DNA from: a virus
Strand: one strand, 5' to 3'
Virus record (IMG/VR): IMGVR_UViG_3300036770_000877
Location: 40,500-104,499 of that record
Length of the DNA: 64,000 nucleotides
Part shown: positions 34,334 through 58,593 of the stretch, one piece after another
How positions within the stretch are numbered: the first letter of the stretch is position 1
Layout of the letters: each line of letters opens with the position of its first letter
Notes under the pieces: model-generated
Told to the model about the DNA's origin: nothing
The model's input: only the letters and a program-made list of their open reading frames with translations
The model's database searches: none
Made by a program: the position numbers and the translations under genes

Positions 34334-34360
34334 TTAGCACTCCCCGAAGCAGAGTGCCAA
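34334..34360. promoter_or_regulatory. CIRCE element (HrcA operator) upstream of hsp20
   Basis: TTAGCACTC-N9-GAGTGCCAA, 1 mismatch to consensus, just downstream of a TGATATAAT -10. Confidence 0.9.
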
Positions 34361-34524
34361 CTATATTATATCATCTGGATAGAGGTCTAGCCAGTCTGGG
34401 CCATCTTCCCTATCACATCTACCATCATTTTTTTTATTTCTACTCATATAATCATAATATCATATGGAGTGATCAGTGCGCCGAAAATATGACACCCCCA
34501 ATAAATATGCCGTATAATAGCTAT

Positions 34525-34869
34525 ATGAACCTATACGATCAATTAACCCCCGTAGAGAAAGCCTACCACGATGCCTTGCTTTCAGTAGTAGATAAATTTG
34601 GACCTTTCGATAAGGGCAGCGGATCTGTCTGGGTCGGATATGAAGATGGCTCTAATAATGAAAATGCCTCCATTGGAGTAAAATGCGGAAACTGCTCCTT
34701 CCATGTAGAAATGCAGGGGATGTCAGAGCTAGGATGTAAAATTTTATCCTTTAAGGTAGAAGAAAATGGATTATGTAGATTGGCTGCTATTCCAGATGGA
34801 TTAGTGAATGCCGAAAATGATAACACCGATAATGAAAATATGGATAAATTCTGGAAGGGCATATTCTAA
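34525..34869 (+). CDS. Cys-rich hypothetical protein (HiPIP-like Cys spacing)
   Basis: CGNC...C...VEENGLC; leaderless after TATAAT at 34513. Confidence 0.55.
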   Translation: MNLYDQLTPVEKAYHDALLSVVDKFGPFDKGSGSVWVGYEDGSNNENASIGVKCGNCSFHVEMQGMSELGCKILSFKVEENGLCRLAAIPDGLVNAENDNTDNENMDKFWKGIF

Positions 34870-35249
34870 TGTATACTTATTACACTAAAATTGAAAATGT
34901 CGTCGATGGCGACACTGTAGATGTTTTTATCGATCTTGGCTTTAAGGTATGGAGATCAGAGCGTATTCGCCTTGTAGGGGTAGATACAGCCGAAAAGAAT
35001 ACTCCCTATGGCAAAGCTACCAAGGCATACCTTACCCAACTTTTGGCGGGGAAGCTCGTAAAACTCGAAGTCTTTAAACCAGATAAGTACGGTAGATACC
35101 TAGGTAAGATATATATCAATAGCGATATTTCGATCAATGACCAAATGGTAGCTAAAGGTATGGCTAAGGGTTATATGGGAGATTCCAAAGTAGGACTTTG
35201 GACTCAAGAAGAGCTTAATAAGACTACTATAGATATTACTCTGGAATAA
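34869..35249 (+). CDS. Thermonuclease (SNase-like)
   Basis: VVDGDTVD, RIRLVGVDT, DKYGRYL. Confidence 0.88.
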   Translation: MYTYYTKIENVVDGDTVDVFIDLGFKVWRSERIRLVGVDTAEKNTPYGKATKAYLTQLLAGKLVKLEVFKPDKYGRYLGKIYINSDISINDQMVAKGMAKGYMGDSKVGLWTQEELNKTTIDITLE

Positions 35250-35780
35250 AGTCATCTAGGGCAAGGAGAATTTCTCTTGCTATCCCGTCGAAATTTATTG
35301 ATCCATTATTAAAATACTTACCTGACTGTATAAGCTTTTGTAGCGTATCAGCTAGATATTGCTGTTTTGTCATATCCCGTCCTCCTAATTTATTAGACGT
35401 AGATAATCAATTATAAGTTATATAGTCATTATTAGCAAAATACTCTATATGCCCTGTTTATTTATATATTGGTATTTTGTTAATAAAATTTTAAATTTTA
35501 CAAAGGTGTTTTCGTATATAGCTATGGGATCCTATTTTGAAAATCCCCCCACCCTTTCCATATTTACCAAAATGTTAGTAAATTTTTAATTTGTATGATG
35601 CAGCATTTTGCGATGTCCGATTTGTCCTAATAGCGAGCACAGATTTGTGAGCAAGGTCACAAAGTTTTTTTTCAAAATGTCCGATTTATCCGTGTTGTCC
35701 CCTTGAAAATGTCAGACCCCTCTGCTAGACTTTAGTCATAGAAAGTTGATAAAGGTTATCAACAAAGAAAGGAAAACAAA

Positions 35781-35993
35781 ATGTTTTCACTAAGTTATAA
35801 AATTCAATCAAAGTCCGAAAGTAATGTGTTCGGCACTTGTCTAGGTGTCGTGTTCGATACCGAACAAAAGGCTTGGTCATATCTTGACCTAGTAGAAAAG
35901 GATAACTACATCCTTGAATGTAATCTAAAAGAATTAGAAAACTACAAGCCTAGCAAGCGTGTAGTATTCGCTACTACTAGAAGTTGGGAGTAA
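35781..35993 (+). CDS. Early hypothetical protein
   Basis: AAGAAAGGAAAA RBS after the first promoter. Confidence 0.75.
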   Translation: MFSLSYKIQSKSESNVFGTCLGVVFDTEQKAWSYLDLVEKDNYILECNLKELENYKPSKRVVFATTRSWE

Positions 35994-35997
35994 TTCA

Positions 35998-36198
35998 ATG
36001 AATGAACAAACTCTACTAACTAAAATGGGTTTCTCTACTCATTCCGCCGTTTCATCTTCTATCGTATCCGATGGGTGGGAGCGTTTTGCCACCTGCTCAA
36101 AATGCGGTTTAGATATATCTGCCTTTTGGGTAGATGATGAAGACCGCCTTAGCGGTTGGTCATCTTGGAAAGCCACTAGTGGCTTATGCCAGGCGTGA
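35998..36198 (+). CDS. Early hypothetical protein (CxxC)
   Basis: ORF track. Confidence 0.6.
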   Translation: MNEQTLLTKMGFSTHSAVSSSIVSDGWERFATCSKCGLDISAFWVDDEDRLSGWSSWKATSGLCQA

Positions 36199-36305
36199 TA
36201 TAAATCACATCCAGCTCTCGGCGTGTCGCCTTGATATTGTCGGGAGTATCTGATAGTATTTACATATACAAATAAATAAATAAGAACCTAAAGAAAGGGG
36301 ACAAA

Positions 36306-36506
36306 ATGTCCGCAAATGTATATTCAATCGAAAACCTATTAGTAGGTAAAACCTATCGCTCAAATAGCCTAACAGGTGAAATAATCTCAGCCGAGCCTCA
36401 CCCTAAAGGTGTATGGTATGAGGGTTGCGATTCCTACTTAGTAGAAATCCGTAATGCTAATGGCGGTTATTCTTATCGCACAATAGCGGTAAAGGTAGGT
36501 GAGTAA
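36306..36506 (+). CDS. Early small beta-rich protein
   Basis: AAGAAAGG RBS; paralog of 39294..39509. Confidence 0.75.
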   Translation: MSANVYSIENLLVGKTYRSNSLTGEIISAEPHPKGVWYEGCDSYLVEIRNANGGYSYRTIAVKVGE

Positions 36507-36508
36507 TA

Positions 36509-36667
36509 ATGAAAATCACTTACTCAATATGGCAGGGCTCTATTATCAAGGGCTCAGGATTCACCGCCTCTAAAATGTCGGAGGTCGCTGATACAATAAA
36601 AGAACTAAACGCAACAGACACTAAACCAAAGTTTGAGGCGTATATTAGCAAAATCGAACAGAACTAA
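36509..36667 (+). CDS. Early hypothetical protein (52 aa)
   Basis: MKITYSIWQG...; below the ORF-track cutoff. Confidence 0.55.
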   Translation: MKITYSIWQGSIIKGSGFTASKMSEVADTIKELNATDTKPKFEAYISKIEQN

Positions 36668-36685
36668 CGAAAGGAAAACTAAAAA

Positions 36686-36850
36686 ATGGAAATACAAATC
36701 GAATTCTCAAAATGGGGTTTTGGTTTTTACTCTGATTTTCTTGCGCTAGATTTTACTTGGGGTTTTCTTGGCTCTCTTGTAGTAATCTATTTCGTAAATA
36801 AAATTCTAAAGCGTAATGAAATAAAATTATTTCGTAAAAGAGTAAAATAA
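36686..36850 (+). CDS. Early small membrane protein (54 aa)
   Basis: GAAAGGAAAA RBS, one TM, basic tail. Confidence 0.6.
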   Translation: MEIQIEFSKWGFGFYSDFLALDFTWGFLGSLVVIYFVNKILKRNEIKLFRKRVK

Positions 36851-36851
36851 A

Positions 36852-37022
36852 ATGATGACTAGAAAAGACTACATCACCGCTGCGGATATTCTAAATCAAG
36901 CATATCCAGAAAATCCCGAACTAATTTTAGAGATGGCTTCTGATTTCTCTGATTATTTCGCAAAGGATAATCCTAGATTTTCCCGCCCTCGATTTTTTGA
37001 GGCAGTAAAAAAGGGCTGGTGA
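36852..37022 (+). CDS. Early hypothetical protein (MTRKDY...DNPRF type)
   Basis: Motif pattern seen in small phage proteins. Confidence 0.65.
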   Translation: MMTRKDYITAADILNQAYPENPELILEMASDFSDYFAKDNPRFSRPRFFEAVKKGW

Positions 37023-37065
37023 GATAACTCACAAAACTGATCGGCGTGTCGCCTTGACAAATCTG

Positions 37066-37089
37066 CGACACGCCCGACAGCGGCGGGCC
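37066..37089 (+). repeat. 24-bp GC-rich repeat CGACACGCCCGACAGCGGCGGGCC, copy 1
   Basis: Identical at 39103 and 40344. Confidence 0.95.
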
Positions 37090-37091
37090 TT

Positions 37092-37107
37092 TCGAACAGA
37101 TGTTCGA
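37092..37107. promoter_or_regulatory. Actinobacterial SOS box (LexA site)
   Basis: TCGAAC-AGAT-GTTCGA, perfect match to TCGAAC-N4-GTTCGA. Confidence 0.8.
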
Positions 37108-37252
37108 TTTAAGAGAGCCCCAAAATGTGGTGTAAATCACAAAACAAAATGTCCGATTTATCCGATTACTGGTCAGTAAATGTCAGTGGTCTATGGTAGG
37201 ATACTAGGTATCAAGATGAGATAAAGGTTATCTCAAAGAAAGGTGGTCTAAA

Positions 37253-37465
37253 ATGGCTACATTAGAAATATTCGAAATGAACGAAAATGGTGCTGGTTGG
37301 GTATCATTAGAAAATGCTTCACAATCTACAAAACTAGATTTGGAATTAGCAATCATAACAAATGCTCCCGTGCAAATGTTGTGCTTCAAATGTCATACAC
37401 CAATTCCAAAAGGAAATGTGTGTTTCAATCATAAAAATGTGAGAGGTGGTATCTACCTTGACTAA
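37253..37465 (+). CDS. Early Zn-finger-like protein
   Basis: AAGAAAGGTGG RBS, CFKC...C..H. Confidence 0.7.
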   Translation: MATLEIFEMNENGAGWVSLENASQSTKLDLELAIITNAPVQMLCFKCHTPIPKGNVCFNHKNVRGGIYLD

Positions 37466-37564
37466 AGATGTTTTTGGATTTGAAAATGCAATTCAATTAG
37501 ACCATTTAACTTTAGAAGAGTTAAAAGAATTAGAAAATATTTTAGAAAAAATAAAATAATTTTT

Positions 37565-37637
37565 GGTGCGTTAGATTAGTGGTTAAATCACTACACTGTC
37601 ACTGTAGAGATCATGGGTTCAAATCCCATACGCATCG
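37565..37637 (+). tRNA. tRNA-Asp(GTC)
   Basis: Acceptor GGTGCGT/ACGCATC, anticodon arm CTACA-CTGTCAC-TGTAG, GGTTCAAATCC; no encoded CCA. Confidence 0.85.
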
Positions 37638-37644
37638 CTAGCTG

Positions 37645-37668
37645 CGACACGCCCGACAGCGGCGGCCC
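37645..37668 (+). repeat. 24-bp GC-rich repeat, copy 2 (1 mismatch)
   Basis: CGACACGCCCGACAGCGGCGGCCC. Confidence 0.92.
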
Positions 37669-37677
37669 TGTGGATAA
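37669..37677 (-). promoter_or_regulatory. DnaA box
   Basis: TGTGGATAA = TTATCCACA on the minus strand, intergenic; second perfect copy at 48052-48060. Confidence 0.55.
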
Positions 37678-37851
37678 CTTTGTCAATACGACACGCCGTA
37701 AAAACGCTGGAAATTTTTGTGATTTCTAACACAATGTGACGCACAACACATGTGATGTGGCTCACAATGTCCGATTTATACCTATTTTCGGCGGGAAAAT
37801 GTCAGTCCCCCCTGCTAGAATTGTGGCATAGAAAAAAGAAAGGATAACTAA

Positions 37852-37980
37852 ATGAAAATTTGTTGCTTCTGCGAAATTGACTTAGATAATGACGCTAAGT
37901 TTTGCTGGAATTGCCTAGAGTATAAAGGCGTAATGTCCGTTGAGGATTTTGAAAAATACTATGGAGAAAGGATTTCCTAA
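37852..37980 (+). CDS. Early Zn-ribbon peptide (42 aa)
   Basis: AAGAAAGGA RBS; CCFC...FCWNC. Confidence 0.65.
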   Translation: MKICCFCEIDLDNDAKFCWNCLEYKGVMSVEDFEKYYGERIS

Positions 37981-38072
37981 TGTCAGATTATCTTGATTAT
38001 CTAGATGAAATCTACGAGGAACTCGTAGACGAATTCGGTCATGAAATTGAAAGTAATTGTATTCATGACTAA
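37980..38072 (+). CDS. Early acidic peptide (30 aa)
   Basis: AGAAAGGA RBS; MSDYLDYLDEIYEELVDEFG. Confidence 0.55.
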   Translation: MSDYLDYLDEIYEELVDEFGHEIESNCIHD

Positions 38073-38171
38073 AATGTGAGGTATCTCACACCGACACTAG
38101 GGGCTAAATCCCCCAAAATGTCAGCCCCCAATGCTAAAATTGTATCCATAAAATAAAGAAAGGAAGTCAAA

Positions 38172-38354
38172 ATGACTTACACGATTAGACTAGAAACCTT
38201 CAATGGTTCAGTATCCAAAATCAACCTACCTTCTAAAGGTGCGGTTGCTCAATTCATCAACACTTATCCAAATCAACTCCCTGTCGGTATTTCCGTCAAG
38301 TTTGATTGCGACTTGCTCGGTGTTCGTGGTGTTCTAAAAGGAAAGGGAAAATAA
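38172..38354 (+). CDS. Early hypothetical protein
   Basis: Promoter at 38119 plus AAGAAAGGAA RBS. Confidence 0.75.
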   Translation: MTYTIRLETFNGSVSKINLPSKGAVAQFINTYPNQLPVGISVKFDCDLLGVRGVLKGKGK

Positions 38355-38355
38355 A

Positions 38356-38547
38356 ATGGAACTTTCTACACTAAATAAAATCAGCGATTTATTCAAGCAA
38401 CTAGAGGAAAAAAGATTTCCTAATAGTTCATCAAATAGCACGACCTCAATGGCTCGACAAATCGGCACAATGTCGGTTTTCGTTTCAGAAAAAAATGCTA
38501 AGCAAATAATTAAAATGTTAGAAAGAGAAATTGGAGAAATTGAATAA
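38356..38547 (+). CDS. Early hypothetical protein
   Basis: ORF track, GAAAGG RBS. Confidence 0.65.
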   Translation: MELSTLNKISDLFKQLEEKRFPNSSSNSTTSMARQIGTMSVFVSEKNAKQIIKMLEREIGEIE

Positions 38548-38699
38548 TGAAAAAAAATGTTTTAATCTCGTATGTTGTAGAGGCTGATACCGACCTATCC
38601 GCTATCTTTGCTTTACAAAAATCCCTGCGCTATTTACCTGATAGCGAATTAATTAAGTTTGACGCTTTCGAAGTTCTAGAAGTAAAGGAAAATAAATAA
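38547..38699 (+). CDS. Early hypothetical protein (50 aa)
   Basis: TAATG coupling on both sides. Confidence 0.6.
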   Translation: MKKNVLISYVVEADTDLSAIFALQKSLRYLPDSELIKFDAFEVLEVKENK

Positions 38700-38968
38700 T
38701 GATTAGCACCGCTCTAAAAATTCAAGACGCAACACAAAAAGCCGTTATGGATGAAAACATAATGAAAATGGCAGGCTTTATTTATACTCATAGAAATGAT
38801 GTTGATGACGAAATGATGGCTAAAATCATTTTTGAATATTCCGCAAATTTATCTGCTCTCGTTGCTACTTTGGTAAGCGAAGCAATTTTATCAGAAACCC
38901 AAATGAAAGAAATGATTTCAGAAATCGAAAGTTTTGAAAAAATTTCTAAAGAAGTTTTAGGAGAATAA
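38699..38968 (+). CDS. Early helical protein
   Basis: ORF track. Confidence 0.7.
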   Translation: MISTALKIQDATQKAVMDENIMKMAGFIYTHRNDVDDEMMAKIIFEYSANLSALVATLVSEAILSETQMKEMISEIESFEKISKEVLGE

Positions 38969-38969
38969 A

Positions 38970-39083
38970 ATGACAACAAATAGAATTTTAACAACGCTGG
39001 TTCAATTAATTTTAGCTGGCGTAACAATTCCACTTTTAATTTTAGCGATTAAAGATTTTAAACACGATCTAAAAAATAGATAG
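38970..39083 (+). CDS. Early single-TM peptide (37 aa)
   Basis: AGGAG RBS, hydrophobic stretch. Confidence 0.55.
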   Translation: MTTNRILTTLVQLILAGVTIPLLILAIKDFKHDLKNR

Positions 39084-39102
39084 TTTAATTTTCAACTAAA
39101 TC

Positions 39103-39126
39103 CGACACGCCCGACAGCGGCGGGCC
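39103..39126 (+). repeat. 24-bp GC-rich repeat, copy 3
   Basis: Exact copy. Confidence 0.95.
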
Positions 39127-39293
39127 TGATTTGTCCGATTTACGGCATTATGTCCGTTTTGCCAGAATTTCCAGATTTTTTTGTGAAATTTATCACACGA
39201 CACGCCGTATCAAAATATGAGATTACTTACGAGTAGGTTGAAAAATGTCAGTGGGTTTTGGTAAACTTGTAGGTATAAAGAAAGGAAAAACTA

Positions 39294-39509
39294 ATGCGTT
39301 CATACTCAATTGTAGATTTGCTAGTAGACCAATACTATGCGCCTACTTCTCTCCGCCGTCGTTTCAACGGAGGTATCATAAACTTTGCGGAAAAGCGTGA
39401 AGATGTCTATTTATCTGAAGGCTATGAAGCCTTCGCTATTCGCTTCCGCCCTACGGGATCTTTTCAAGACCAATGGGCGACAGTTGCCGTCAGGGTTTCC
39501 GACTACTAA
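39294..39509 (+). CDS. Early small beta-rich protein
   Basis: AAGAAAGGAAAA RBS; paralog of 36306..36506. Confidence 0.75.
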   Translation: MRSYSIVDLLVDQYYAPTSLRRRFNGGIINFAEKREDVYLSEGYEAFAIRFRPTGSFQDQWATVAVRVSDY

Positions 39510-39557
39510 ATGTCGGAGGCTTCTGCTAGACTTGTTCTATAAAGAAAGGAAAAGAAA

Positions 39558-39719
39558 ATGTCTGCTATAAAAAGACTAATTGAAAACATACTCGCTTGTG
39601 ATACCTGCTATGGAAAAGGTTTTATGGGTTGGGTTTCTCCAGACGGAGACTATGACTTTGAGTATTGCGATTGTAATCCTCATAACCTAGTTTTGGAAGG
39701 AAGCGAGGTAATTTTCTAA
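39558..39719 (+). CDS. Early Zn-finger peptide (53 aa)
   Basis: Promoter at 39511, RBS, CDTCYGKG...CDC. Confidence 0.65.
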   Translation: MSAIKRLIENILACDTCYGKGFMGWVSPDGDYDFEYCDCNPHNLVLEGSEVIF

Positions 39720-39829
39720 TGGAAATTTTTCTCTGCGATAAATGCGATACTCTCGCCCAAGTATCCCGAATTGGTGATACAATAAAAATAACTAAGTGTG
39801 CTTGCCTAGCACTAGATTGGAAAGACTAA
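39719..39829 (+). CDS. Early Cys-rich peptide (36 aa)
   Basis: CDKC...CAC, TAATG coupling. Confidence 0.5.
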   Translation: MEIFLCDKCDTLAQVSRIGDTIKITKCACLALDWKD

Positions 39830-40038
39830 TGGACTACTTATACTCGCTAACTATCTCCTATGACGGAGAATTGGTTTCAACAACCCGCTCATCGGATTTG
39901 CTAGAAATAGTAAATGCGTGGAATAAATGCGTGGACTTTGGAGATGCTAAAGAATACGCAACCTACAATTTATCAGACCCTAGTGGTAAGATGTATACCA
40001 AGAATTTCTACAGAAATGGAGTAGTAAATGGGAAGTAA
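39829..40038 (+). CDS. Early hypothetical protein
   Basis: Start reassigned to the ATG at the TAATG overlap. Confidence 0.65.
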   Translation: MDYLYSLTISYDGELVSTTRSSDLLEIVNAWNKCVDFGDAKEYATYNLSDPSGKMYTKNFYRNGVVNGK

Positions 40039-40306
40039 TCTATCAACCGAACTATCAAGTGGGCTATTGGATTTGGATTTGGAGCAACAGATAACTATTC
40101 AGTTGCGTTCTAATCATTACCCGCCCGTTCCGTATTCAATGGTTTCAGTTTGTATTGAAGCGATTGACGCATACAACGAAGGCGAACACAATAAAGAAAT
40201 AACTTTGCCTGAAGGCGTAAGTTGGCGTGGAAAAAATTCTGCACCTGCTTATTCAATTATTGACGGGCACCACTTGTGGGATTGGATTATCGAAAGCGAA
40301 TTGTGA
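40028..40306 (+). CDS. Early hypothetical protein
   Basis: QLRSNHYPPVP...HHL motif. Confidence 0.7.
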   Translation: MGSNLSTELSSGLLDLDLEQQITIQLRSNHYPPVPYSMVSVCIEAIDAYNEGEHNKEITLPEGVSWRGKNSAPAYSIIDGHHLWDWIIESEL

Positions 40307-40343
40307 TCTAAATCATAAAAGCTGCGGCGTGTCGACTTGACAA

Positions 40344-40367
40344 CGACACGCCCGACAGCGGCGGGCC
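40344..40367 (+). repeat. 24-bp GC-rich repeat, copy 4
   Basis: Exact copy. Confidence 0.95.
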
Positions 40368-40448
40368 TCAAATGTCCGATTTATGAGCTTTAAGTAGAAA
40401 CGCCGAAATTTTGTGGAATGTCAGTGGGTTATGCTAGACTAGTTTATT

Positions 40449-40583
40449 ATGAGAAAGAAAACGACTGAGGAATTACGGCGACTAATGGAGTTGCGCCGTA
40501 GTAATGCAGCCACGCCTGTAAAAAATAAAAAGGCGTATTCTCGCAAGCGCAAGCATAAATGTCGCCCCTATGGTGTAGAATAA
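40449..40583 (+). CDS. Basic 44-aa peptide with ArfA-like motif
   Basis: Near-leaderless after the promoter at 40419; KNKKAYSRKRKHK. Confidence 0.55.
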   Translation: MRKKTTEELRRLMELRRSNAATPVKNKKAYSRKRKHKCRPYGVE

Positions 40584-40605
40584 AATAAAGAAAGAAAGGT
40601 GCCCC

Positions 40606-41325
40606 ATGAAACTAAAACGCTCTAATGATAGAAAGGTTGCAAATGCAGTCTCAAGAAATGGAAAAACCCCAACAATTGCCAACACTTTTGGATTGCCTGC
40701 TGGAAAAGACTTCTCGTGTCCTGGTGCCACTAGTGTTTGTGAAAGCGTTTGCTATGCAGGAAAACTCGAAAGAGTATACAAGGGAGTAAAGGCTGTCCTG
40801 CTGCATAACTGGGAACTCCTACGCAATGCAGATATGGAAACAATGTCTCTATTGATTGATGAGATGATTGTTGACTTTGTTGCAGATTGTGAGAAAAAGT
40901 CTGCAGATAAATTATTCCGTATCCACTGGGACGGTGATTTCTTCAATGACACTTACGCATACGCATGGAAGGCTGTTATTGCTAATCATCCCGACGTACA
41001 ATTTTGGGTATACACTCGTGTAAAGTCTGCTGCTCTAATTCTAAAAGATATTCCTAACCTATCACTCTATTATTCTACTGATGATGAGAATAAAGAAATT
41101 GCTCATGAACTAAAACTAAATGACGGTATTCGCCTTGCTTATCTAGGAAAAACTTTCGCTGTCACCGAAGACAAAATGAAAGAACTAACTGGCAAGCCTG
41201 GTGCAAAATGCCCTGAGAATGCAAAACGTATTCCGTTGATTTCAACTAACGGTAGCGCATGCGTGTCATGCGGTCTATGCGTTTATGGTAAAGCAGATAT
41301 TCGATTTAGCGCAACTAAAAAATAA
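40606..41325 (+). CDS. GP88-family (radical-SAM-like Fe-S) phage protein
   Basis: FGLPAG..SCPGAT.VC..VCYA, FRIHWDGDFF, FWVYTR, C-terminal CVSCGLC. Confidence 0.75.
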   Translation: MKLKRSNDRKVANAVSRNGKTPTIANTFGLPAGKDFSCPGATSVCESVCYAGKLERVYKGVKAVLLHNWELLRNADMETMSLLIDEMIVDFVADCEKKSADKLFRIHWDGDFFNDTYAYAWKAVIANHPDVQFWVYTRVKSAALILKDIPNLSLYYSTDDENKEIAHELKLNDGIRLAYLGKTFAVTEDKMKELTGKPGAKCPENAKRIPLISTNGSACVSCGLCVYGKADIRFSATKK

Positions 41326-41333
41326 GGAGAAAA

Positions 41334-41447
41334 ATGAAACTATACAATGCATACATGGCCCTGTACTTAGGAAATGAAGAACAACAACAAGCTGCACAAG
41401 AATATCTCGACTCCTTGGAAGAATTAAAAGAAGAGGACCAGGAGTAA
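41334..41447 (+). CDS. Early acidic peptide (37 aa)
   Basis: AAGGAG RBS. Confidence 0.5.
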   Translation: MKLYNAYMALYLGNEEQQQAAQEYLDSLEELKEEDQE

Positions 41448-41686
41448 TTGGGTTACGTATTTGTAGCTTTATCTGTTGGGATCTTCTTGGTCCCCGCCGC
41501 TATAGTTTATTTACTATATAAGAAAAGCTGAGGCCCGCCCCGCATAAAGCGATTTGTCAAATTACGACACTGTGATTTTTCCCACAAAAGTTTTTGAGAA
41601 AATGTCCGATTTGACCCATTTCTAAGTTGCGCTCTGTCGGTCTGAAATGCTAAACTATTATTACCAACAAACGAAAGGAAGCAAAA

Positions 41687-41836
41687 ATGGCTAAGACACC
41701 AAAAATCGGTGAAACCATTACAACTGCTCAGAGCAAAGTTTCTGGCGTTGTAAAGGAAGTCGTAAAGAACCCATCTGGCTCGGTGCGTGTTCGTCTTGAT
41801 GTAGAGGGCGAAACTCGCTGGACTACTATCAAGTAG
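41687..41836 (+). CDS. Early small SH3/KOW-like beta protein (49 aa)
   Basis: Promoter at 41635, GAAAGGAA RBS; paralog of 42449..42631. Confidence 0.7.
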   Translation: MAKTPKIGETITTAQSKVSGVVKEVVKNPSGSVRVRLDVEGETRWTTIK

Positions 41837-41851
41837 TTTATCAGATAAAAC

Positions 41852-41882
41852 TGACCTGAGCAAGTCAATGCTAAACTGCTCA
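41852..41882 (+). ncRNA. Small H-type pseudoknot motif
   Basis: UGAC-CUGAGCAA-GUCA-AUGCUAAAC-UGCUCA; covarying copy at 33807-33778 (-). Confidence 0.6.
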
Positions 41883-41943
41883 CCAAGTTTATTCTGTCGG
41901 TGTGGTCTGATAGAATAGTAATACCAACTAAGAAAGGAAAAAA

Positions 41944-42366
41944 ATGGCAAGAAACGGCAAGGCGATAAATGTAAAAATCGCTACAACCAAAGTAATCAAG
42001 GCACTTGAGGGTGCGTTGGCTAAATTGGAAACTGAGTATGCTTCACAAGAAGCAAACGAGGCTAAGTATGAAAAGGCTCGTAAGGCTTGGGCTAAAGAAG
42101 TGGGTAAGTTAGCACTTGCTCAAATCTCAAAGGCAGAGAACCTAACTGCTTCTAAACGCTACAACAACGAGGTAAATGTTGATTTCAACTTACCTGCTGG
42201 AACTATCGTTCTACCTGATGAACCTAAAAAGGATTTCACCACAATGAACGAGTGGAACTATCGTGAGCAGAAAGAGGAAATTGAGAACGCTATTCGTATT
42301 CTCAAGATGACCGACGAGGAAGTCGTTTCCACTTCAACTTACAACGCTATCGCTAGATACTTGTAA
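41944..42366 (+). CDS. Early helical protein
   Basis: Promoter at 41895, AAGAAAGGAAAA RBS. Confidence 0.8.
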   Translation: MARNGKAINVKIATTKVIKALEGALAKLETEYASQEANEAKYEKARKAWAKEVGKLALAQISKAENLTASKRYNNEVNVDFNLPAGTIVLPDEPKKDFTTMNEWNYREQKEEIENAIRILKMTDEEVVSTSTYNAIARYL

Positions 42367-42448
42367 TCCTGATGGGGGAGGGGTGTTTGACCTCCCCCAC
42401 CAAATCTGATAAACTAAATATAAGCAAACAAAACGAAAGGAAAAACGA

Positions 42449-42631
42449 ATGTCCCCAGTATTCGGAAATAACAGCGATAGTTTCTATCGCAAGGGTGATG
42501 TATTCACAACTGGCAAGTCAGGTATCACAGGTCGCTTGGAGGAAATCGTATCAGTTAGACCAAATCTAACTAAGATTGCTCTACGCACACCTAACAACCA
42601 ACTTCGCTGGGCAATGGTAAAGATTGGCTAA
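42449..42631 (+). CDS. Early small SH3/KOW-like beta protein
   Basis: TTGACC-N17-TAAACT promoter (42387-42415), GAAAGGAAAA RBS. Confidence 0.7.
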   Translation: MSPVFGNNSDSFYRKGDVFTTGKSGITGRLEEIVSVRPNLTKIALRTPNNQLRWAMVKIG

Positions 42632-42797
42632 TCGATAGCCGATAGAAACAGTGGCAGTTTCGGGAATGTTCTCGCCACATGTCTTAAGTAAGAATTCCCA
42701 CCAAATTTCCCCTGGATGATCATGCGGAGTACAAAACAAAAATAGTAGACTCGTCAGAAGACGTCCAGGGGCCCAATTGGGCCACGGTCCATTCGAA

Positions 42798-42837
42798 TGC
42801 AGTCAGCTTGGTTACCTTTCTTTCCAGGCTGGCTGCA
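42798..42837 (+). ncRNA. Hairpin with anti-SD loop UUACCUUUCUUU
   Basis: 14-bp stem with two G-U pairs (plus strand favoured). Confidence 0.6.
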
Positions 42838-42989
42838 AGGCCCGCCCCGCCAAACCACGCTTGTCAAGTTACGACGATGTGATTTTGCCCACTAAAAAAT
42901 GTCCGAATTGCCCTAGTTTGCCAATCTAACTAGACATAGCCCACCTATGTATGCTAGACTTGATAAGTATCCAATAGAAAGGAAAAAAA

Positions 42990-44021
42990 ATGGCTACAAA
43001 TCTCGCTCATAAGCAAGAAGTAGAAAACGGCGATGTGTCGTTTGCTCTTGTTGATTCCCGCTCAAATCCTGCTTGGCACTCTTTTGCCAATAAGGTGTTC
43101 GATTCAGATTCAGGAGATGTTTCAATCTCCGACATAATGAATGGTGCTAAACTATCCAACTGGAATGTCCGTCTTGAAGATGTTGCGCCTCTTGCGCCAC
43201 AACACAATTTCATTACTGATTCATTCCTTGTTGTTCGTGATAACCCAATGACCGATGGTGCTACTGATGTGCTATCTGTTGTCGGTTCTCGCTATAAGGT
43301 TGTTCAGAATGAAGAACTATTCTCATTCGCTGAAAATCTCCACGATGGAAATCCTGATGTAAAGGTTGATTCTGCTGGTTCTCTAAAGCAGGGTCGCATT
43401 GTTTATGGTTCTTGGTCTTTGCCAAATGAACTAATCATTGACCCAAAGGGTGTTGCTGATAAGACAAAACTTTATCTTATCGTTTGGACATCTCACGATG
43501 GTTCTGTTGCTGTTCAAGCAGCAATCACACCTGTTCGTGTTCGTTGCCAAAACACTCTAAACCTTGCGATGAAATCTGCTAAGCAATCTTTCAAGATTCG
43601 CCACACGCAGACCGCAGATGGAAAGATTCTCGCTGCTCGTGAGGCTCTTGGTTTATCTGTTGCTTACTTTGACCAATTCTCAAAGCAGGCTAATGAACTT
43701 TATCAGGCTTCTATTACCGATAAGCAGTTTTCTGACCTTATCCGTAATCTTTACCCAAAGCCTGAAAAAGACGCTAAGGGTGCGTTGAAGAAGTGGGAAA
43801 ATAAGGTTGTCTTGATTGACGAACTTTATCATAACTCACCAACTAACGCAGGAATCAAAGGCACAAAGTGGGGTGCGCTAAATGCTCTAACTGAGCGTTT
43901 GGATTATTTCCGTTCTGCTCGTAAGGGTAATACGGAATCTCTTTCCGCTTCCGCTTCAGGTTTTGACCCTGTTATCACCGCAGAGAAAAATAAAATTCTC
44001 AAAGCGGTTGTCGCATTGTAA
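42990..44021 (+). CDS. DUF932 / phage-plasmid-like protein (TIGR03299 type)
   Basis: PAWH, VGSRYKVVQNEELF, AGSLKQG, TSHDGS, TPVRVRCQNTL, IRHT, GTKWGALNA. Confidence 0.88.
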   Translation: MATNLAHKQEVENGDVSFALVDSRSNPAWHSFANKVFDSDSGDVSISDIMNGAKLSNWNVRLEDVAPLAPQHNFITDSFLVVRDNPMTDGATDVLSVVGSRYKVVQNEELFSFAENLHDGNPDVKVDSAGSLKQGRIVYGSWSLPNELIIDPKGVADKTKLYLIVWTSHDGSVAVQAAITPVRVRCQNTLNLAMKSAKQSFKIRHTQTADGKILAAREALGLSVAYFDQFSKQANELYQASITDKQFSDLIRNLYPKPEKDAKGALKKWENKVVLIDELYHNSPTNAGIKGTKWGALNALTERLDYFRSARKGNTESLSASASGFDPVITAEKNKILKAVVAL

Positions 44022-44030
44022 AATGCTACG

Positions 44031-44060
44031 GGGGCGCAGAAATGCGCCCCCTATTTTTTT
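44031..44060 (+). terminator. Intrinsic terminator
   Basis: GGGGCGCA-GAAA-TGCGCCCC plus T-tract. Confidence 0.8.
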
Positions 44061-44215
44061 GATCTAAAGCTCGGCGTGTTGATTTGACAAAACAAGTTTT
44101 GCGGGGCGGGTCTGACTGTTTATTTTATCATTACGTCACAAGTTAAAAATGCCCTGGAATTTGCAGGATGTCAGTCCCATGGTGTAGTATTGTATTAAGG
44201 ATAGAAAGGTAGATT

Positions 44216-44425
44216 ATGAGTTGGCAATTAGAAGCCAGTTGCAGCGAGGACCAGCATGACTTGTTTTTCTCGCAGGCTAAAGGTAAAATGGATAGAGCAA
44301 TACAAATTTGTGGCTCGTGCTCTGTAAAGGGTGAGTGTCTTAAGTTTGCTATTGATGAAAAAGTAGAGTTCGGCATATTCGGTGGTCTCACACCGCAAGA
44401 GAGGAAAAAGAAATGGCTGATATGA
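44216..44425 (+). CDS. whiB: WhiB-family transcriptional regulator
   Basis: W..EASC...DLFF...ICGSCSVKGECL...FGIFGGLTPQERK. Confidence 0.9.
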   Translation: MSWQLEASCSEDQHDLFFSQAKGKMDRAIQICGSCSVKGECLKFAIDEKVEFGIFGGLTPQERKKKWLI

Positions 44426-44646
44426 CAGACGACCTATTCTCAGATAGAATAGGAGAACATATTTTAGGTGCTATTCAAGTAGATATCGAAGAGCAACTAT
44501 TTGAAGATTGGAATAACTCTAATCTAGATGAAGGCAATCTTTATGCAGAATGGAGATTTTTTGAATTCGCTACACCTGAAATCAAGAAACAATACAACGA
44601 GCACTACGGATATACAGAAGAGGATGAGTATTACTTATCATGCTAG
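44413..44646 (+). CDS. Acidic hypothetical protein
   Basis: ORF track. Confidence 0.65.
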   Translation: MADMTDDLFSDRIGEHILGAIQVDIEEQLFEDWNNSNLDEGNLYAEWRFFEFATPEIKKQYNEHYGYTEEDEYYLSC

Positions 44647-44813
44647 GTTATACTGCAGATGATGTTGAACGTATGATTAATGCGGTTCATGATTCTAAAT
44701 TATTTTATCTTAGATACCCGTCAGACTTAATTGATAAGTCACAGTTACGTGCAGATCTAGAAGATACGGTCAGCTTTTTACAAGGTGTACTAGCCGAGGG
44801 GCACGTCCAATGA
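44640..44813 (+). CDS. Hypothetical protein (57 aa)
   Basis: MLGYTADDVERM..., overlaps the upstream stop. Confidence 0.55.
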   Translation: MLGYTADDVERMINAVHDSKLFYLRYPSDLIDKSQLRADLEDTVSFLQGVLAEGHVQ

Positions 44814-45072
44814 GCACTAGACATAAACAGTGTACACAATGCTATAATGGAAAGTATTACTTTTACAATGGTAAAGACGAACTAGTCGCTATCCCGTGCC
44901 CATTTTGCTAGGAGATAAAATGAGTAAAGAGTTTAAAGAACTTGTTGGAAAAGGCATTCTAGGTTTTTTGGGCCTAGGTGCCATAGTTATATACGTTATC
45001 TACAAAATATTTGTGGCCTAAGTCACACCTATATTCGTTGAATTTGTCCCCGTTAACTGTTAGGATAGATAT

Positions 45073-45282
45073 ATGGAAAAACTAATAGAATATATGAATA
45101 TACATCTTGTCAGTCTTCTGCAAGATTTAGAATCTTTGGAAGAACAAATGGAGCGATTGGATATGAACTCTAAGGACTTTATTGAGTTAGACTTTGAATT
45201 CAATAATATCTCAGGGCAAACCATTGCTACCCGCCACCTAATGTCAGTTGCTCGTGATATCCTAGAAGAACAGAAAGGATAA
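45073..45282 (+). CDS. Acidic helical hypothetical protein
   Basis: Leaderless after the promoter at 45045. Confidence 0.65.
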   Translation: MEKLIEYMNIHLVSLLQDLESLEEQMERLDMNSKDFIELDFEFNNISGQTIATRHLMSVARDILEEQKG

Positions 45283-45284
45283 CA

Positions 45285-45566
45285 ATGATTGAATCAGCCG
45301 AGGCTATCGAACCACGCTTACAGAAACTAGTTGATTTGGGTTGCACTGGTATTGACATAATGCACGGGGAACTCAAGAATCTTATGCTTGAAGCAGAGCA
45401 GGAATATTCTAACTATGTAAAGATTGAAGAAGAAACTGACTATGATGACGCTATGGATTCTATGGAGCGTAAATATTGGGAGGGCATGCTAGACGCATAC
45501 TCCCACATGTATAAAATGACCTACGACCTATCGTTTGCTATTAGTGCTAAGGAGGCAGGAGAATGA
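45285..45566 (+). CDS. Acidic hypothetical protein
   Basis: AGAAAGGA RBS. Confidence 0.7.
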   Translation: MIESAEAIEPRLQKLVDLGCTGIDIMHGELKNLMLEAEQEYSNYVKIEEETDYDDAMDSMERKYWEGMLDAYSHMYKMTYDLSFAISAKEAGE

Positions 45567-45862
45567 AGGCAGGAGACAAAGACAAACTAAATAAATGTTT
45601 AGAGATTCTAGATACAACTGACCTAGGCCTATCATTAGTTTGGCTATGGACATGGAGTACTATCAAGAACTTTATGGAAGATGAAACATTTATCATGAAG
45701 AAAACTGAAGATGAAATGTGGGATTGTCTATGTGAGGCTGTTGAGGCTGGACATGGATTTTCTTTGGAGTATGGAGCAGAACAACATCATGACGACGTAA
45801 TGGAATGGATGTTAAATCGGGAGTACATGGTAGATTCCATGTTTGAAGAGGAAGAGGAATAA
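45563..45862 (+). CDS. Acidic hypothetical protein
   Basis: ORF track. Confidence 0.7.
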   Translation: MKAGDKDKLNKCLEILDTTDLGLSLVWLWTWSTIKNFMEDETFIMKKTEDEMWDCLCEAVEAGHGFSLEYGAEQHHDDVMEWMLNREYMVDSMFEEEEE

Positions 45863-46086
45863 TGTATCACAAACCAATGCTTGAAATACTTGAAGTAGAA
45901 TACTCAGTTTCCCCTGGTGGTGTAGATGAGTTTGAGGTTTATTCATTACATGAAGAAGATGTTATGAATCCCCCGCTATTTACTACCACCGATCTTTTGG
46001 AAGCAGTTCAATTCTGTTATAGTTTAGGAAAAGATTTTGTTGTGCGAACATTAGCAGAGTGGGAAGAAAGACAAATGCTTATCTAA
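45862..46086 (+). CDS. Acidic hypothetical protein
   Basis: ORF track. Confidence 0.65.
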   Translation: MYHKPMLEILEVEYSVSPGGVDEFEVYSLHEEDVMNPPLFTTTDLLEAVQFCYSLGKDFVVRTLAEWEERQMLI

Positions 46087-46167
46087 AGCTGGCGGGTCGG
46101 GTCTGTCTCAAAATATGGACATTACGTACAACTTGAAAAATGCCCTGGAATCCTGTATTATTAAGAT

Positions 46168-46359
46168 ATGACTGAAACAACCCTGGAATATGTGTTAACA
46201 AATAATGATAGATGTGACCGTTGTTCTGCCCAAGCTTTATATTTATGCAAAGGTATTACGGGTGAGCTAATGTTTTGCGGTCACCATTTCAATTCAAATA
46301 AAGAATCATTAACTAACTGGGCTTACGAGATCGTAGACGAGTCCTCTAAAATTTCTTGA
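46168..46359 (+). CDS. Small actinobacterial-type Zn-binding protein
   Basis: DRCDRCSAQA...LMFCGHH. Confidence 0.7.
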   Translation: MTETTLEYVLTNNDRCDRCSAQALYLCKGITGELMFCGHHFNSNKESLTNWAYEIVDESSKIS

Positions 46360-46411
46360 CAATCCGCCCTGAATTTTCTATAATTAATATATAGACAGAA
46401 AGGAGATGCAA

Positions 46412-46534
46412 ATGACAAAGCGAGAGTACCTAGTTTCCCTTGGACAAAAAGTCGGCAAGCGTGGACGTTTTTCCAAAGAGCAGGTAGAATTGATTAAGAA
46501 GGCTGAAGCACAAGGCACAGTTTTCACAAAGTAA
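46412..46534 (+). CDS. Lsr2-like DNA-binding peptide (40 aa)
   Basis: AGAAAGGAG RBS; REYLVSLGQKVGKRGRFS resembles the Lsr2 C-terminal RGR domain. Confidence 0.6.
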   Translation: MTKREYLVSLGQKVGKRGRFSKEQVELIKKAEAQGTVFTK

Positions 46535-46563
46535 ATATCCACTACTAAGAAAGGTAGGCCCCC

Positions 46564-47328
46564 ATGCCAAATTGGGTATATAACACTTTGACCATACAAG
46601 GTCCTAAAGAGGAAATTGATTCAATTAAAGAAAGATTGAATCGTCCTTTTACACTAGCGCAAGAGACATTCGGAATGGGCGATATTAGTTCATCTGGATT
46701 CCCGACTAAAATCACACAGGTAAGTTATTCTAATCCTGTATTTTCATTTCATAATATCCATTCGTATAAGGACGAAGGCATTACTGATGAAGAGTATGCC
46801 TGCCAGCCTGACCGTAGTGGTGTAGATATGAATGACCCTGACTGGTTCCGCAAGTCTGTTGAGTTTGCTAAAACTCAAAAGGATTGGTATTCATGGAACA
46901 ACTCCAACTGGGGCACCAAATGGGATGTCGCAGTTCGTGATGATGACGAATATCCAAATACTGAGTTACTTGAGTATAAGTCAGAGGGTCATGACAACTG
47001 GCTTGTATACAAGTACGAGACTGCTTGGTCACCTGCAGTAACTATCTTAACTAAACTATCTAACTTGGTTCCTAACTCTCTCCTTACACTGGAGTATGAA
47101 GAGGAACAAGGTTGGGGCGGAGAACTAGAAATTCTTCGTGGTGATGTTAAAACAATTCTAGAATATGAAACTCGTTGCTATGCATGTCAATCTTATGACT
47201 GTGTTGAGTATTGTGAGAATGACTGTGGTCAATTCTGCTCTGAATGCAATGAGGGTTCATGGCGAGATGAAGAAGCAATGGCAGAATGCGAAGAGCACAA
47301 GCCTTTACTTGAAAAGGTAGAGGTGTAA
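46564..47328 (+). CDS. YubB/DUF1281 ferredoxin-like domain protein
   Basis: MPNWVYN, WYSWNNSNWGTKWD, YETAWSP. Confidence 0.8.
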   Translation: MPNWVYNTLTIQGPKEEIDSIKERLNRPFTLAQETFGMGDISSSGFPTKITQVSYSNPVFSFHNIHSYKDEGITDEEYACQPDRSGVDMNDPDWFRKSVEFAKTQKDWYSWNNSNWGTKWDVAVRDDDEYPNTELLEYKSEGHDNWLVYKYETAWSPAVTILTKLSNLVPNSLLTLEYEEEQGWGGELEILRGDVKTILEYETRCYACQSYDCVEYCENDCGQFCSECNEGSWRDEEAMAECEEHKPLLEKVEV

Positions 47329-47981
47329 TGTTTGACCAAAGCTTTACGTCAACCAAGCACACATTTGTCTGTGACCCAGACGAATGTGACACCTTGGTGG
47401 AAATAACTACTTCAGACAAGTTTGGATTCCCTTCTGGATGGATCCATAATACATGTCCCTGCGGTAGACAAATGTCACTGATATCCAGTACAATAGAAGA
47501 AAACCCAACTATAGAAAGGCACCAACCCATGGAATCAACAACTACGGTCCCTGAGACCTATAATGCAAATCTTCTTGTAACATATAAGAAGATTGAGAAT
47601 GGCGAGACATCCTTCCCAGTCATCAAGGTAAATGACCTTGAATGGACCTTGGAGCAGGCCCGCCGCACAGATACCCGTGCAAACAATCTGCAGTCGACAA
47701 TTAATAAAATCATTGATTGTTTAACTGAAGACCACTGGTTTAATCCAAACACAGAACTATCAGACGTCCTAGAAGAACTGTGCGAAATCCTTAACCACAA
47801 CCCAGTTAAGACTGTAACGTGGGAGGCCAGCATAACGGTCCGAGGAGAAGTTGAAGTTCCTCTGGCTGAATTCGAAGACTTCGATTTAGATTCTCATATT
47901 TCTGAGAACTTAACTATTGACTCATATGACGGCAATACCACAATTGACACATATGATGTTGACTATGTAACTGAGCGATAA
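47328..47981 (+). CDS. Acidic hypothetical protein with N-terminal Zn ribbon
   Basis: CDPDEC...CPCG; internal AGAAAGG RBS before MESTT. Confidence 0.7.
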   Translation: MFDQSFTSTKHTFVCDPDECDTLVEITTSDKFGFPSGWIHNTCPCGRQMSLISSTIEENPTIERHQPMESTTTVPETYNANLLVTYKKIENGETSFPVIKVNDLEWTLEQARRTDTRANNLQSTINKIIDCLTEDHWFNPNTELSDVLEELCEILNHNPVKTVTWEASITVRGEVEVPLAEFEDFDLDSHISENLTIDSYDGNTTIDTYDVDYVTER

Positions 47982-48059
47982 CATGGGGATGAGTGGTGGG
48001 GGTCATCTTGCCGACCCCCACCCTCTTATGATACAATCAAATGCGGAAAGGTGTGGATA

Positions 48060-48356
48060 ATGGCAATAGGCGATAAAGACATAGACGAAGGTAAGTTGGC
48101 TGGCATTGTTGAAGACTACTTATCTGATGTCAGATTTAGCAAACTCAACTTCGCTTGGCACATGGGCAACAAGTCCCCACGAATACAGGAAGAGTTTTGG
48201 AATACTCTGTGGGCGTGGATAGAGGAGATGTCTGAGTATTACAGGCGAGGCATGGTAGATACCAAGCACTTCAGAGTGGCAAAAATGTGTCATGAGATTA
48301 GGGCTCACATGGAGGGCGAAACTTGGGTGGATAACCAACTCACGCTTGAGTTGTAA
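48060..48356 (+). CDS. Hypothetical protein
   Basis: GAAAGG RBS; start reassigned to ATG. Confidence 0.65.
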   Translation: MAIGDKDIDEGKLAGIVEDYLSDVRFSKLNFAWHMGNKSPRIQEEFWNTLWAWIEEMSEYYRRGMVDTKHFRVAKMCHEIRAHMEGETWVDNQLTLEL

Positions 48357-48491
48357 GCTGCCCTGGTTTTTGATATAATATATATGATCAATCTTAGTAG
48401 ATGGTGCAGCTATCAGGTGCCGACCAAGTTGTTAAATAAAGCCCGTCCTGGGGGTGTTGACGGAACAGCAGCCATCTGCTATATTTGATAT

Positions 48492-48740
48492 ATGGAACTA
48501 AATGAATATATAACCAAGGTCAAGCAGGATTTCCCTAATGGCTTCTCTGATTACGTCAAAGAGCACGGGGATAAGACAGAATGGTGGTTTCAATACTATA
48601 AGGCTAATAACCTTGTAGAGCAAGTAAATGGCTACGTGTTTGATTATTCTGAGATGGCTATGATGAGCCATTGGGAGAATGAGAAATGGTGGTCGTTTAT
48701 GGGAAATGTAGAATACGAGTTCAACAAAGAATATAACTAA
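48492..48740 (+). CDS. Hypothetical protein
   Basis: Leaderless after TTGACG-N17-TATATT. Confidence 0.65.
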   Translation: MELNEYITKVKQDFPNGFSDYVKEHGDKTEWWFQYYKANNLVEQVNGYVFDYSEMAMMSHWENEKWWSFMGNVEYEFNKEYN

Positions 48741-48754
48741 CAAAGGAGCAAGGT

Positions 48755-49111
48755 GTGGGAGCAAGATGTACGTTCGTATTTAAAACAGATGAGAATCATG
48801 CAGTGGCATTGTATAGCCATTGGGGTGAAGATTCTCTCTATGAAGATTTAGCCGCAGCATTAAATCATGCAAAGCCTAGATGGTCTGACCCATCGTATGG
48901 CACCCGTATGGCAATTAGTTATCTAATGCAGGATAGCATTTTAGATGAAACGGGATTCGGGATTTATGGATGTGACCCATCAGACCAGGGATTTATGGAT
49001 ACACCAATCACAATTGATTTTACAGATAATACTGTAGGCAATGGGGAGGATTGGCATTCCTTTGAAGAGTTTGTTAATTATCATGGGAATGTGTTAGTTA
49101 AATCCAGTTAG
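48755..49111 (+). CDS. Conserved phage hypothetical protein
   Basis: AAAGGAG RBS; LYSHWG, RWSDPSYGTR. Confidence 0.7.
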   Translation: MGARCTFVFKTDENHAVALYSHWGEDSLYEDLAAALNHAKPRWSDPSYGTRMAISYLMQDSILDETGFGIYGCDPSDQGFMDTPITIDFTDNTVGNGEDWHSFEEFVNYHGNVLVKSS

Positions 49112-49116
49112 CTTAT

Positions 49117-49136
49117 GTCCCCGCTTCGGCGGGGAC
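49117..49136 (+). terminator. GC hairpin with UUCG tetraloop ending the plus-strand island
   Basis: GTCCCCGC-TTCG-GCGGGGAC. Confidence 0.7.
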
Positions 49137-58271: not shown

Positions 58272-58295
58272 TTGATCTCCTTTTATTATATTGCG

Positions 58296-58367: not shown

Positions 58368-58368
58368 G

Positions 58369-58440: not shown

Positions 58441-58441
58441 T

Positions 58442-58515: not shown

Positions 58516-58519
58516 ATTG

Positions 58520-58592: not shown

Positions 58593-58593
58593 A

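Follow-up and report, generated by a model that had tools for sequence, protein, structure and literature searches.

Promoters that depend on the WYL-family activator PafBC carry the motif tGTCgg(N10)tA(N3)T, with the 5' part at -23 to -28 and no -35 element (PMC8635444). The GTC is read by residues R46 and R50 of PafB and PafC contacts region 4 of SigA, a mode of activation known as 'sigma adaptation' (Mueller et al. 2021, PMC8635444). Formation of the complex is enhanced by single-stranded DNA (ssDNA; PMC8635444; PMC11804915), and promoters of this class (RecA-NDp promoters) have been described in Streptomyces too (PMC5087735). Until now, their only known place is in the regulon with which the host answers DNA damage independently of RecA. 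Here, we describe promoters of this type in phage DNA. They form an array in a window of 64 kb (the whole stretch analysed, 64,000 nucleotides), which is the right-hand part of the 104,499-bp IMG/VR record IMGVR_UViG_3300036770_000877 (estimated to be 85% complete), and they stand before a block of mostly tiny genes. We refer to them as -26 promoters and to the block as the island. An earlier note on this DNA, made from its letters, had proposed that the phage drives its earliest genes through the host's PafBC. On the sequence evidence, we give a probability of about 0.65 to the reading that host PafBC, together with RNA polymerase (RNAP) and SigA, would recognize the island promoters and fire or boost the island when ssDNA appears.

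The phage sites share with PafBC-dependent (RecA-NDp, recA P1-type) promoters the position of the hexamer, the 10-nt gap, the lack of a -35, an invariant GTC and a single asymmetric half-site. That is, they have all the sequence features of the class: TGTCRG at -28 to -23, N10, a SigA-type TAnnnT and the GTC core. The motif match claimed by the earlier note agrees with the published one, including the placement of the upstream element at -23 to -28 (PMC8635444). The phage departs from the known examples in context, with an array of about 15 sites before tiny genes of unknown function rather than before repair genes, and in flavour: position 5 of the hexamer is mostly A, and TGn (the extended -10 element) is nearly always present.

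Other described systems resemble parts of this arrangement. In the middle promoters of phage T4, the MotA box at -30, used together with AsiA ('sigma appropriation'), likewise replaces the -35 with an activator box at a fixed distance from a normal -10. The T4 adaptor lies between sigma region 4 and the DNA, as we propose for the phage sites, and the parallel with PafBC is drawn in PMC8635444. T4 encodes both of its adaptors, however; in the lake phage we found none, and its box is that of a host activator. The terminal-repeat module of SPO1 and the pre-early and early regions of T5 hold dense, strong promoters of the plain housekeeping -35/-10 kind. As in the island, these modules cluster numerous short operons of tiny genes in one block, and every operon has a promoter and a strong ribosome-binding site (RBS) to itself. 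In the lake phage, by contrast, the block has activator-type promoters and plain -35/-10 promoters serve other genes. In CTX phi and in coliphage 186 (tum), phage or prophage genes are placed under the host SOS response by LexA boxes. The DNA-damage state of the host is likewise read there through the operator of a host regulator, but by release of a repressor and mostly for prophage induction, whereas the island would be under positive control by a RecA-independent ssDNA sensor. Lastly, WYL regulators of the BrxR, CapW and DriD types use the same sensor family and the same ssDNA signal to link infection or damage to transcription (PMC9122601, PMC9122588, PMC9186387). In those cases the host turns on defence or repair, whereas the phage would exploit the host sensor for its own genes.

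The promoter array and its conservation

The pattern TGTCRG-N10-TAnnnT has 16 matches in the window, compared with a mean of 1.08 and a maximum of 4 in 100 dinucleotide shuffles. Thirteen of them fall within 35710-45263, all on the plus strand, exactly as the earlier note had counted, and a 14th plus-strand match (34721) lies just upstream. The array has a density of about one site per 700 bp and is confined to a single island, outside which (34354-49702) every gene of the phage lies on the minus strand. The two remaining matches, at 26786 and 56478, are probably chance hits, in line with the roughly one expected; both lie inside genes. We rejected the latter as a promoter of the second WhiB gene: it falls within that gene's own frame, and a look-alike in a relative stands in an unrelated context.

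The sites are placed as promoters should be. A GAAAGG-type RBS plus an ATG follows the -10 by 21-88 nt (in most cases 21-50 nt) at 12 of the 13 sites. At the other one (40419) the ATG comes after 8 nt; its ORF, 40449-40583, has no RBS and may be read from a leaderless message. TG occupies -15/-14 in 12 of the 13, and a -35-like hexamer at 17-18 nt is present in only three, so the earlier description of sites directly before genes and mostly devoid of a canonical -35 stands. Two variant sites had been reported as well. One of these is TGTCGC at 40560; the second could not be pinned to a site.

To look beyond the window, the DUF932 gene was used as a query, which returned 230 relatives in IMG/VR, and motifs were counted in the best 80 of the 230 loci (63-100% identity, 35-40% GC). 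These contain 1004 copies of the motif on the gene strand as against 4 on the opposite one, with 3 and 8 matches for reversed-pattern controls. The spacing that the earlier note had called invariant proves to be so across the clade, with 1004 matches for N10, 8 for N9 and 3 for N11. The only enriched hexamers are TGTCAG (791) and TGTCGG (213). A logo of the 784 distinct sites reads AA-TGTC(A/G)G-T-S-S, then T-n-T-G-n-TAtAAT, with nothing informative at -35. The extended -10 is clade-wide (T in 73% and G in 83% at -15/-14), and by position frequency A is enriched (60%) seven nt past the -10. As SigA promoters, the sites are thus of the extended -10 kind and lack the TTGACA-like hexamer that a canonical -35/-10 promoter has 16-18 nt upstream of its -10. 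When sites were anchored on TGnTAnnnT, an RBS and a start codon alone, 449 of 722 had an exact TGTCRG, and 28 more were one-mismatch variants, nearly all with the GTC intact. The diversity of the 784 sites, their variable spacers, their spread over 80 loci, the restriction of conservation to hexamer, TGn and -10, and the strand ratio of 1004 to 4 together refute an artefact of chance or repetition, i.e. one duplicated intergenic cassette that resembles a PafBC box. Repeated intergenic elements do exist here (e.g. a hairpin, GCCCGACAGCGGCGGGC, in four copies), and the probability of such an artefact is nonetheless close to nil.

Five relatives that are 99-100% complete (107-120 kb) each hold 9-14 sites in a single island of 7-10 kb on one strand, and the positions of the sites follow the gene cassettes. 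We also scanned IMG/VR with TGTCAGTGG-N4-TGnTAnnnT. Among the matches listed, most loci with multiple sites share genes with the window phage, and a few (L274, L291 and L306) do not. These three IMG/VR fragments carry 11-16 sites of the same promoter type and have almost no proteins in common with the phage; they come either from hypervariable islands within this clade or from separate phage lineages with the same boxes. A different lineage was not called, since the gene content of islands is too variable.

The phage and its candidate hosts

The replicon is an uncultured freshwater actinophage, distantly related to the Streptomyces phages of Stanwilliamsviridae, and not a mycobacteriophage. 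This follows from its GC content (39%), its two WhiB-like proteins, its kinship with Stanwilliamsviridae (the closest cultured phages, at 57-66% amino-acid identity) and the presence of its DNA in lake, river and subsurface metagenomes. The mycobacterial setting implied by the earlier note therefore has to be dropped. The record encodes DnaE, DnaB, DnaG, RecA and a class II ribonucleotide reductase, together with a GP88-like protein and DUF932. No lysogeny genes are visible, and we regard the phage as lytic-type. No match to the island was found by megablast among 50,697 phage records; six river metatranscriptomes contain 35-43% of the island's sampled words.

The host side was examined in 401 genomes, sampled from the class around a Microbispora genome. 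A PafC-type helix-turn-helix (HTH; HTH_PafC) is present in 388 of the 401, a tally that includes eight unpublished genomes (G008, G023, G028, G031, G037, G280, G339 and G361) on which the other results are not based. The sample contains 26 streamlined genomes (1.3-1.5 Mb, mostly single contigs, sampled GC about 42-47%), which appear to represent the freshwater acI group. Streamlined freshwater actinobacteria are among the most abundant lake bacteria and are barely tractable. In one streamlined genome of 1.4 Mb, pafB (WYL+WCX), pafC (HTH_PafC+WYL) and tatC are adjacent, and pafB-pafC-tatC is the mycobacterial gene order. The PafB encoded there aligns over its full length with that of M. smegmatis (7P5X, 9FND; E about 1e-37) and retains R46, R50, K52 and R56. 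The candidate hosts thus carry pafBC, as the proposal supposes, and in the candidate host group the same promoter stands at recA.

The recA gene is preceded by the motif in 25 of the 26 streamlined genomes, typically as TGTCAGTGGCGCCTGCTACCTT followed directly by TCGAACAGATGTTCGG. Position 5 is A in 20 of the 26, TGn is present in 18 and an adjoining GAAC-N4-GTTC in 23. Among 26 larger, high-GC genomes, 19 have a recA motif, with A at position 5 in two of these and TGn in none. The phage sites, for their part, have 79% A at position 5, 83% G at -14 and frequently TGTCAGTGG. Going by sequence, the flavour of the phage promoters (TGTCAG plus TGn) is that of the streamlined low-GC group and not that of the high-GC genomes, because A and TGn are found in 20 and 18 of 26 in the former as against two and none in the latter. 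In five streamlined genomes, the TGn-stricter pattern gives about one site each, recA included. In one streamlined genome, a LysM-nrdR locus carries this box together with an SOS-like one; the locus resembles M. tuberculosis Rv2719c, a known RecA-independent damage gene.

The host recA promoter itself (L138-L158) is compound: a PafBC box, the TGn and -10, and an SOS box at once after. It is nearly identical in about 20 of the streamlined genomes and has a 5' leader of about 200 nt or more. The phage sites differ from it in having no overlapping SOS box.

What reads the boxes

Under the proposed control by host PafBC, the island would be transcribed from some 14-15 hybrid promoters, each made of a 6-9 bp element, TGTC(A/G)G(TGG), at -28 to -23, a gap of 10 nt and an extended SigA-type TGnTAnnnT, with no -35. 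The PafBC heterodimer of the host, activated by ssDNA, would slip in between the DNA and region 4 of sigma-A, with the HTH of PafB reading the GTC core and PafC holding the sigma factor. The phage would encode no factor for these sites and would rely on resident host PafBC and host RNAP-SigA. Possible sources of ssDNA are entering or resected phage DNA, replication and nuclease attack, and the TGn may permit basal transcription without PafBC. The early timing, the ssDNA trigger, the binding of PafBC and the identity of the host are parts of this model that we infer. In its widest form, the model says that a whole, abundant clade of freshwater actinophages of about 105-120 kb, probably infecting acI/'Ca. 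Nanopelagicales', may cede control of a host-takeover block to the ssDNA-sensing PafBC of its host, a generalization on which we are evenly divided.

The alternative in the earlier note was a phage factor that mimics PafBC, and the genes it named to look for were a WYL or sigma-like gene. Searches for a WYL domain, a PafC-type HTH and sigma-70 region 2 found none in the 85%-complete record or in the five complete relatives, and a search for sigma-70 region 4, made in the five complete relatives, gave two sub-threshold matches and nothing more. A factor may nevertheless be hidden among the small proteins without a family. It would matter if the island were served by extended -10 SigA promoters that work unaided, as the TGn of 12 of 13 window sites (83% clade-wide) and the near-consensus TAtAAT might suggest. 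In that case, the hexamer would belong to an unrecognized phage protein, which could be an activator imitating PafB or a repressor that silences the island later on; the more than 30 island ORFs without a family and the incomplete record leave room for such a protein. Yet the same hexamer, spacing and TGn stand at the chromosomal recA of 25 of 26 candidate hosts, where there is no phage protein, and HTH_PafC, WYL and sigma-70 region 2 are missing from five relatives with complete genomes. In addition, a lone asymmetric half-site with its register fixed to 1 bp is more in keeping with an adaptor bound to RNAP than with a repressor acting as a dimer, and a factor made from the island could not launch its own first transcription. 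We therefore consider this explanation unlikely.

The WhiB genes of the phage suggest another circuit. Wbl (WhiB-like) proteins are partners of sigma-A region 4, and one of the two WhiB genes lies immediately behind a -26 promoter, so that a phage WhiB-like protein on region 4 could steer RNAP to the hexamer in an auto-amplifying loop independent of PafBC. The box is also found at the host recA promoter, however, where phage WhiB is absent, and the Streptomyces relatives, which presumably encode WhiB-type factors too, do so without the array. To our knowledge, Wbl-dependent promoters act through sigma region 4 near -35 and have no specific -26 box. With these points in mind, the WhiB circuit seems extremely doubtful.

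A third alternative concerns the purpose of the array rather than its reader. Its high density, in one island only, could make it a sponge: about 15 high-affinity PafBC/RNAP sites, multiplied by replication, would titrate PafBC and thereby blunt the damage response or PafBC-controlled defences, with gene driving secondary. PafBC is said to affect mycobacteriophage resistance in work cited in PMC12848934. A strong RBS and an ORF at 21-50 nt after nearly every site, and the way in which sites track cassettes in relatives, point to promoter function instead. Titration explains no observation that is otherwise unexplained, and it is compatible with, rather than exclusive of, reading of the promoters by PafBC. 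As the main role of the array, we consider it very unlikely.

Several findings weigh against host PafBC as the reader of the island. The case is built on sequence, and four of the six river metatranscriptomes yielded for the island just assembled contigs of relatives, which cannot show transcription starts. An extended -10 with a good TAtAAT could give activator-free promoters, with the hexamer serving something else. With the record at 85% completeness and no family for most ORFs of the island, the phage may encode a DNA-binding protein that went unrecognized. In five streamlined genomes, the bare pattern is no commoner than a reversed control; because of this lack of enrichment, we define the host regulon as a small one, by recA, one other locus and the TGTCAGTGG flavour. 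A WhiB search over 55 genomes gave 33-43% identity throughout and did not tell the host groups apart. No motif array was found in the three cultured Streptomyces relatives, phages Mandalore, BillNye and Coruscant, so the array is not family-wide. Finally, the conventional promoters found elsewhere in the phage need no activator, and the genes behind them could fire before the island, which weighs against the label 'earliest' given to the island genes.

If control by host PafBC is true, it would be new. Full-text literature searches (PafBC with phage, mycobacteriophage or prophage; RecA-NDp) brought up no paper that describes PafBC-type promoters in phage DNA. A virus would for the first time be seen to use sigma adaptation through a host adaptor, and a sensor for defence or repair would become the ignition key of a phage. 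A RecA-independent damage alarm, including one raised by phage DNA or by nuclease-based defence, would fire phage genes. Moreover, a host ssDNA sensor would gate phage expression, and its family, WYL, is the one with which bacteria switch on anti-phage systems. The locus thus offers a testable model of how phages of streamlined freshwater actinobacteria could time their programme while encoding neither a sigma factor nor an adaptor. Hundreds of naturally occurring promoter variants also become available for studying how PafBC recognizes its sites, and the TGTCAG plus TGn flavour may serve as a host-prediction signature for uncultured actinophages.

Neighbouring elements and gene content

Where intergenic regions are visible, the minus-strand transcription units have conventional TTGACA/TTGACT-N17-TATnnT promoters (e.g. 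the genes starting at 18309, 55063, 56829 and 59306). The -26 promoters are treated as a separate regulatory class because minus-strand genes of the same phage use TTGACA-N17-TATAAT. Promoters without a -26 box occur in the island as well (Table 1).

Table 1. Features of the island and other pattern matches in the window, by position
Feature	Coordinates	Strand	Details
Pattern match, probably chance	26786..26807	+	inside minus-strand structural gene
Sole plus-strand gene island	34354..49702	+	~40 mostly tiny ORFs; from strand blocks, ORFs, families, tRNA
Candidate promoter, exact -26/-10	34721..34742	+	no TG at -15/-14; in 3' end of ORF 34354-34869; SNase gene 126 nt on
PafBC-type promoter	35710..35731	+	TGTCAG, TGn, TAGACT; also TTGAAA at 17 nt; ATG 35781
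PafBC-type promoter	36238..36259	+	TGTCGG, TGn, TAGTAT; also TTGATA at 17 nt; ATG 36306
PafBC-type promoter	36576..36597	+	TGTCGG, TGn, TACAAT; ATG 36686
Perfect actinobacterial SOS (LexA) box	37092..37107		TCGAAC-AGAT-GTTCGA; 89 nt upstream of promoter 37181
PafBC-type promoter	37181..37202	+	TGTCAGTGG, TGn, TAGGAT; ATG 37253
PafBC-type promoter	37800..37821	+	TGTCAGTCC, TGn, TAGAAT; ATG 37852
PafBC-type promoter	38119..38140	+	TGTCAGCCC, TGn, TAAAAT; ATG 38172, then five small ORFs
PafBC-type promoter	39246..39267	+	TGTCAGTGG, TGn, TAAACT; ATG 39294
PafBC-type promoter	39511..39532	+	TGTCGG, TGn, TAGACT; ATG 39558
PafBC-type promoter	40419..40440	+	TGTCAGTGG, TGn, TAGACT; ATG 40449, 8 nt past -10
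One-mismatch variant	40560..40581	+	TGTCGC-N10-TAGAAT, GTC core intact; precedes GP88-like gene at 40606
PafBC-type promoter	41635..41656	+	TGTCGG, TGn, TAAACT; ATG 41687
PafBC-type promoter	41895..41916	+	TGTCGGTG, TGn, TAGAAT; ATG 41944
Conventional -35/-10-like promoter	42931..42960	+	TAGACA-N18-TAGACT with TGn, no -26 box; before DUF932 gene
PafBC-type promoter	44169..44190	+	TGTCAG, TAGTAT, no TG at -15/-14; immediately 5' of phage WhiB gene
Phage WhiB-like transcription factor	44216..44425	+	Pfam Whib, E 3.7e-19; first gene behind promoter 44169
PafBC-type promoter	45242..45263	+	TGTCAG, TGn, TATCCT; ATG 45285; last of array
Conventional promoter	46356..46384	+	perfect TTGACA-N17-TATAAT, no -26 box; before Lsr2-like ORF
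Pattern match, probably chance	56457..56478	-	no TGn; inside open frame of second WhiB gene

No LexA-type arrangement was seen at the -26 promoters of the window; the sole perfect SOS box (37092) overlaps none of them. This box shares 15 of 16 bases with the recA operator of the candidate hosts. In the 80 related loci, SOS boxes number eight exact and nine with one mismatch, at most one per locus and in 17 loci, compared with 1-6 matches at up to one mismatch for scrambled-palindrome controls. Measured from the -10 of the nearest promoter, they are about 110-330 nt upstream or 30-140 nt downstream.

The GC-rich hairpin GCCCGACAGCGGCGGGC occurs four times on the plus strand (37072-37088, 37651-37667, 39109-39125 and 40350-40366), with none expected by chance. 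A -26 promoter follows every copy at a distance of 53-133 nt. Read on the opposite strand, the hairpin gives ...GCTGTCGGGC, with a TGTCGG in it. The hairpin could be a terminator or another regulatory element.

The island holds genes for an SNase, a GP88-like protein, DUF932, WhiB and a 40-aa Lsr2-like peptide, together with one tRNA-Asp. Family searches on 36 island ORFs gave named or annotated matches only for WhiB, a DUF1281_C protein and the Lsr2-like peptide; a few further ORFs match PHROGs of unknown function and more than 30 have no family. This small-gene block, with its WhiB, nuclease, DUF932 and GP88-like genes, is probably a host-takeover or counter-defence module. The Lsr2-like ORF (46412-46534, plus strand) matches just positions 5-43 of 188 of the DNA-bridging phrog_6269 (E 6.7e-8).

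A scan of genome contigs with the DUF932 protein gave one close match, at 69% identity, on a 67.6-kb contig (L089, JBBALJ010000006.1). The contig is filed in a 'Bacteroidia' metagenome-assembled genome; since the clade encodes WhiB and is related to actinophages, this filing is probably a binning error, and the match points to no host. The tRNA-Asp of the island (37565-37638, plus strand) is flanked by two -26 promoters, and seven other tRNAs (Thr, Glu, Gly, Arg, Asp, Asn and Met) lie at 58295-61825 on the minus strand.

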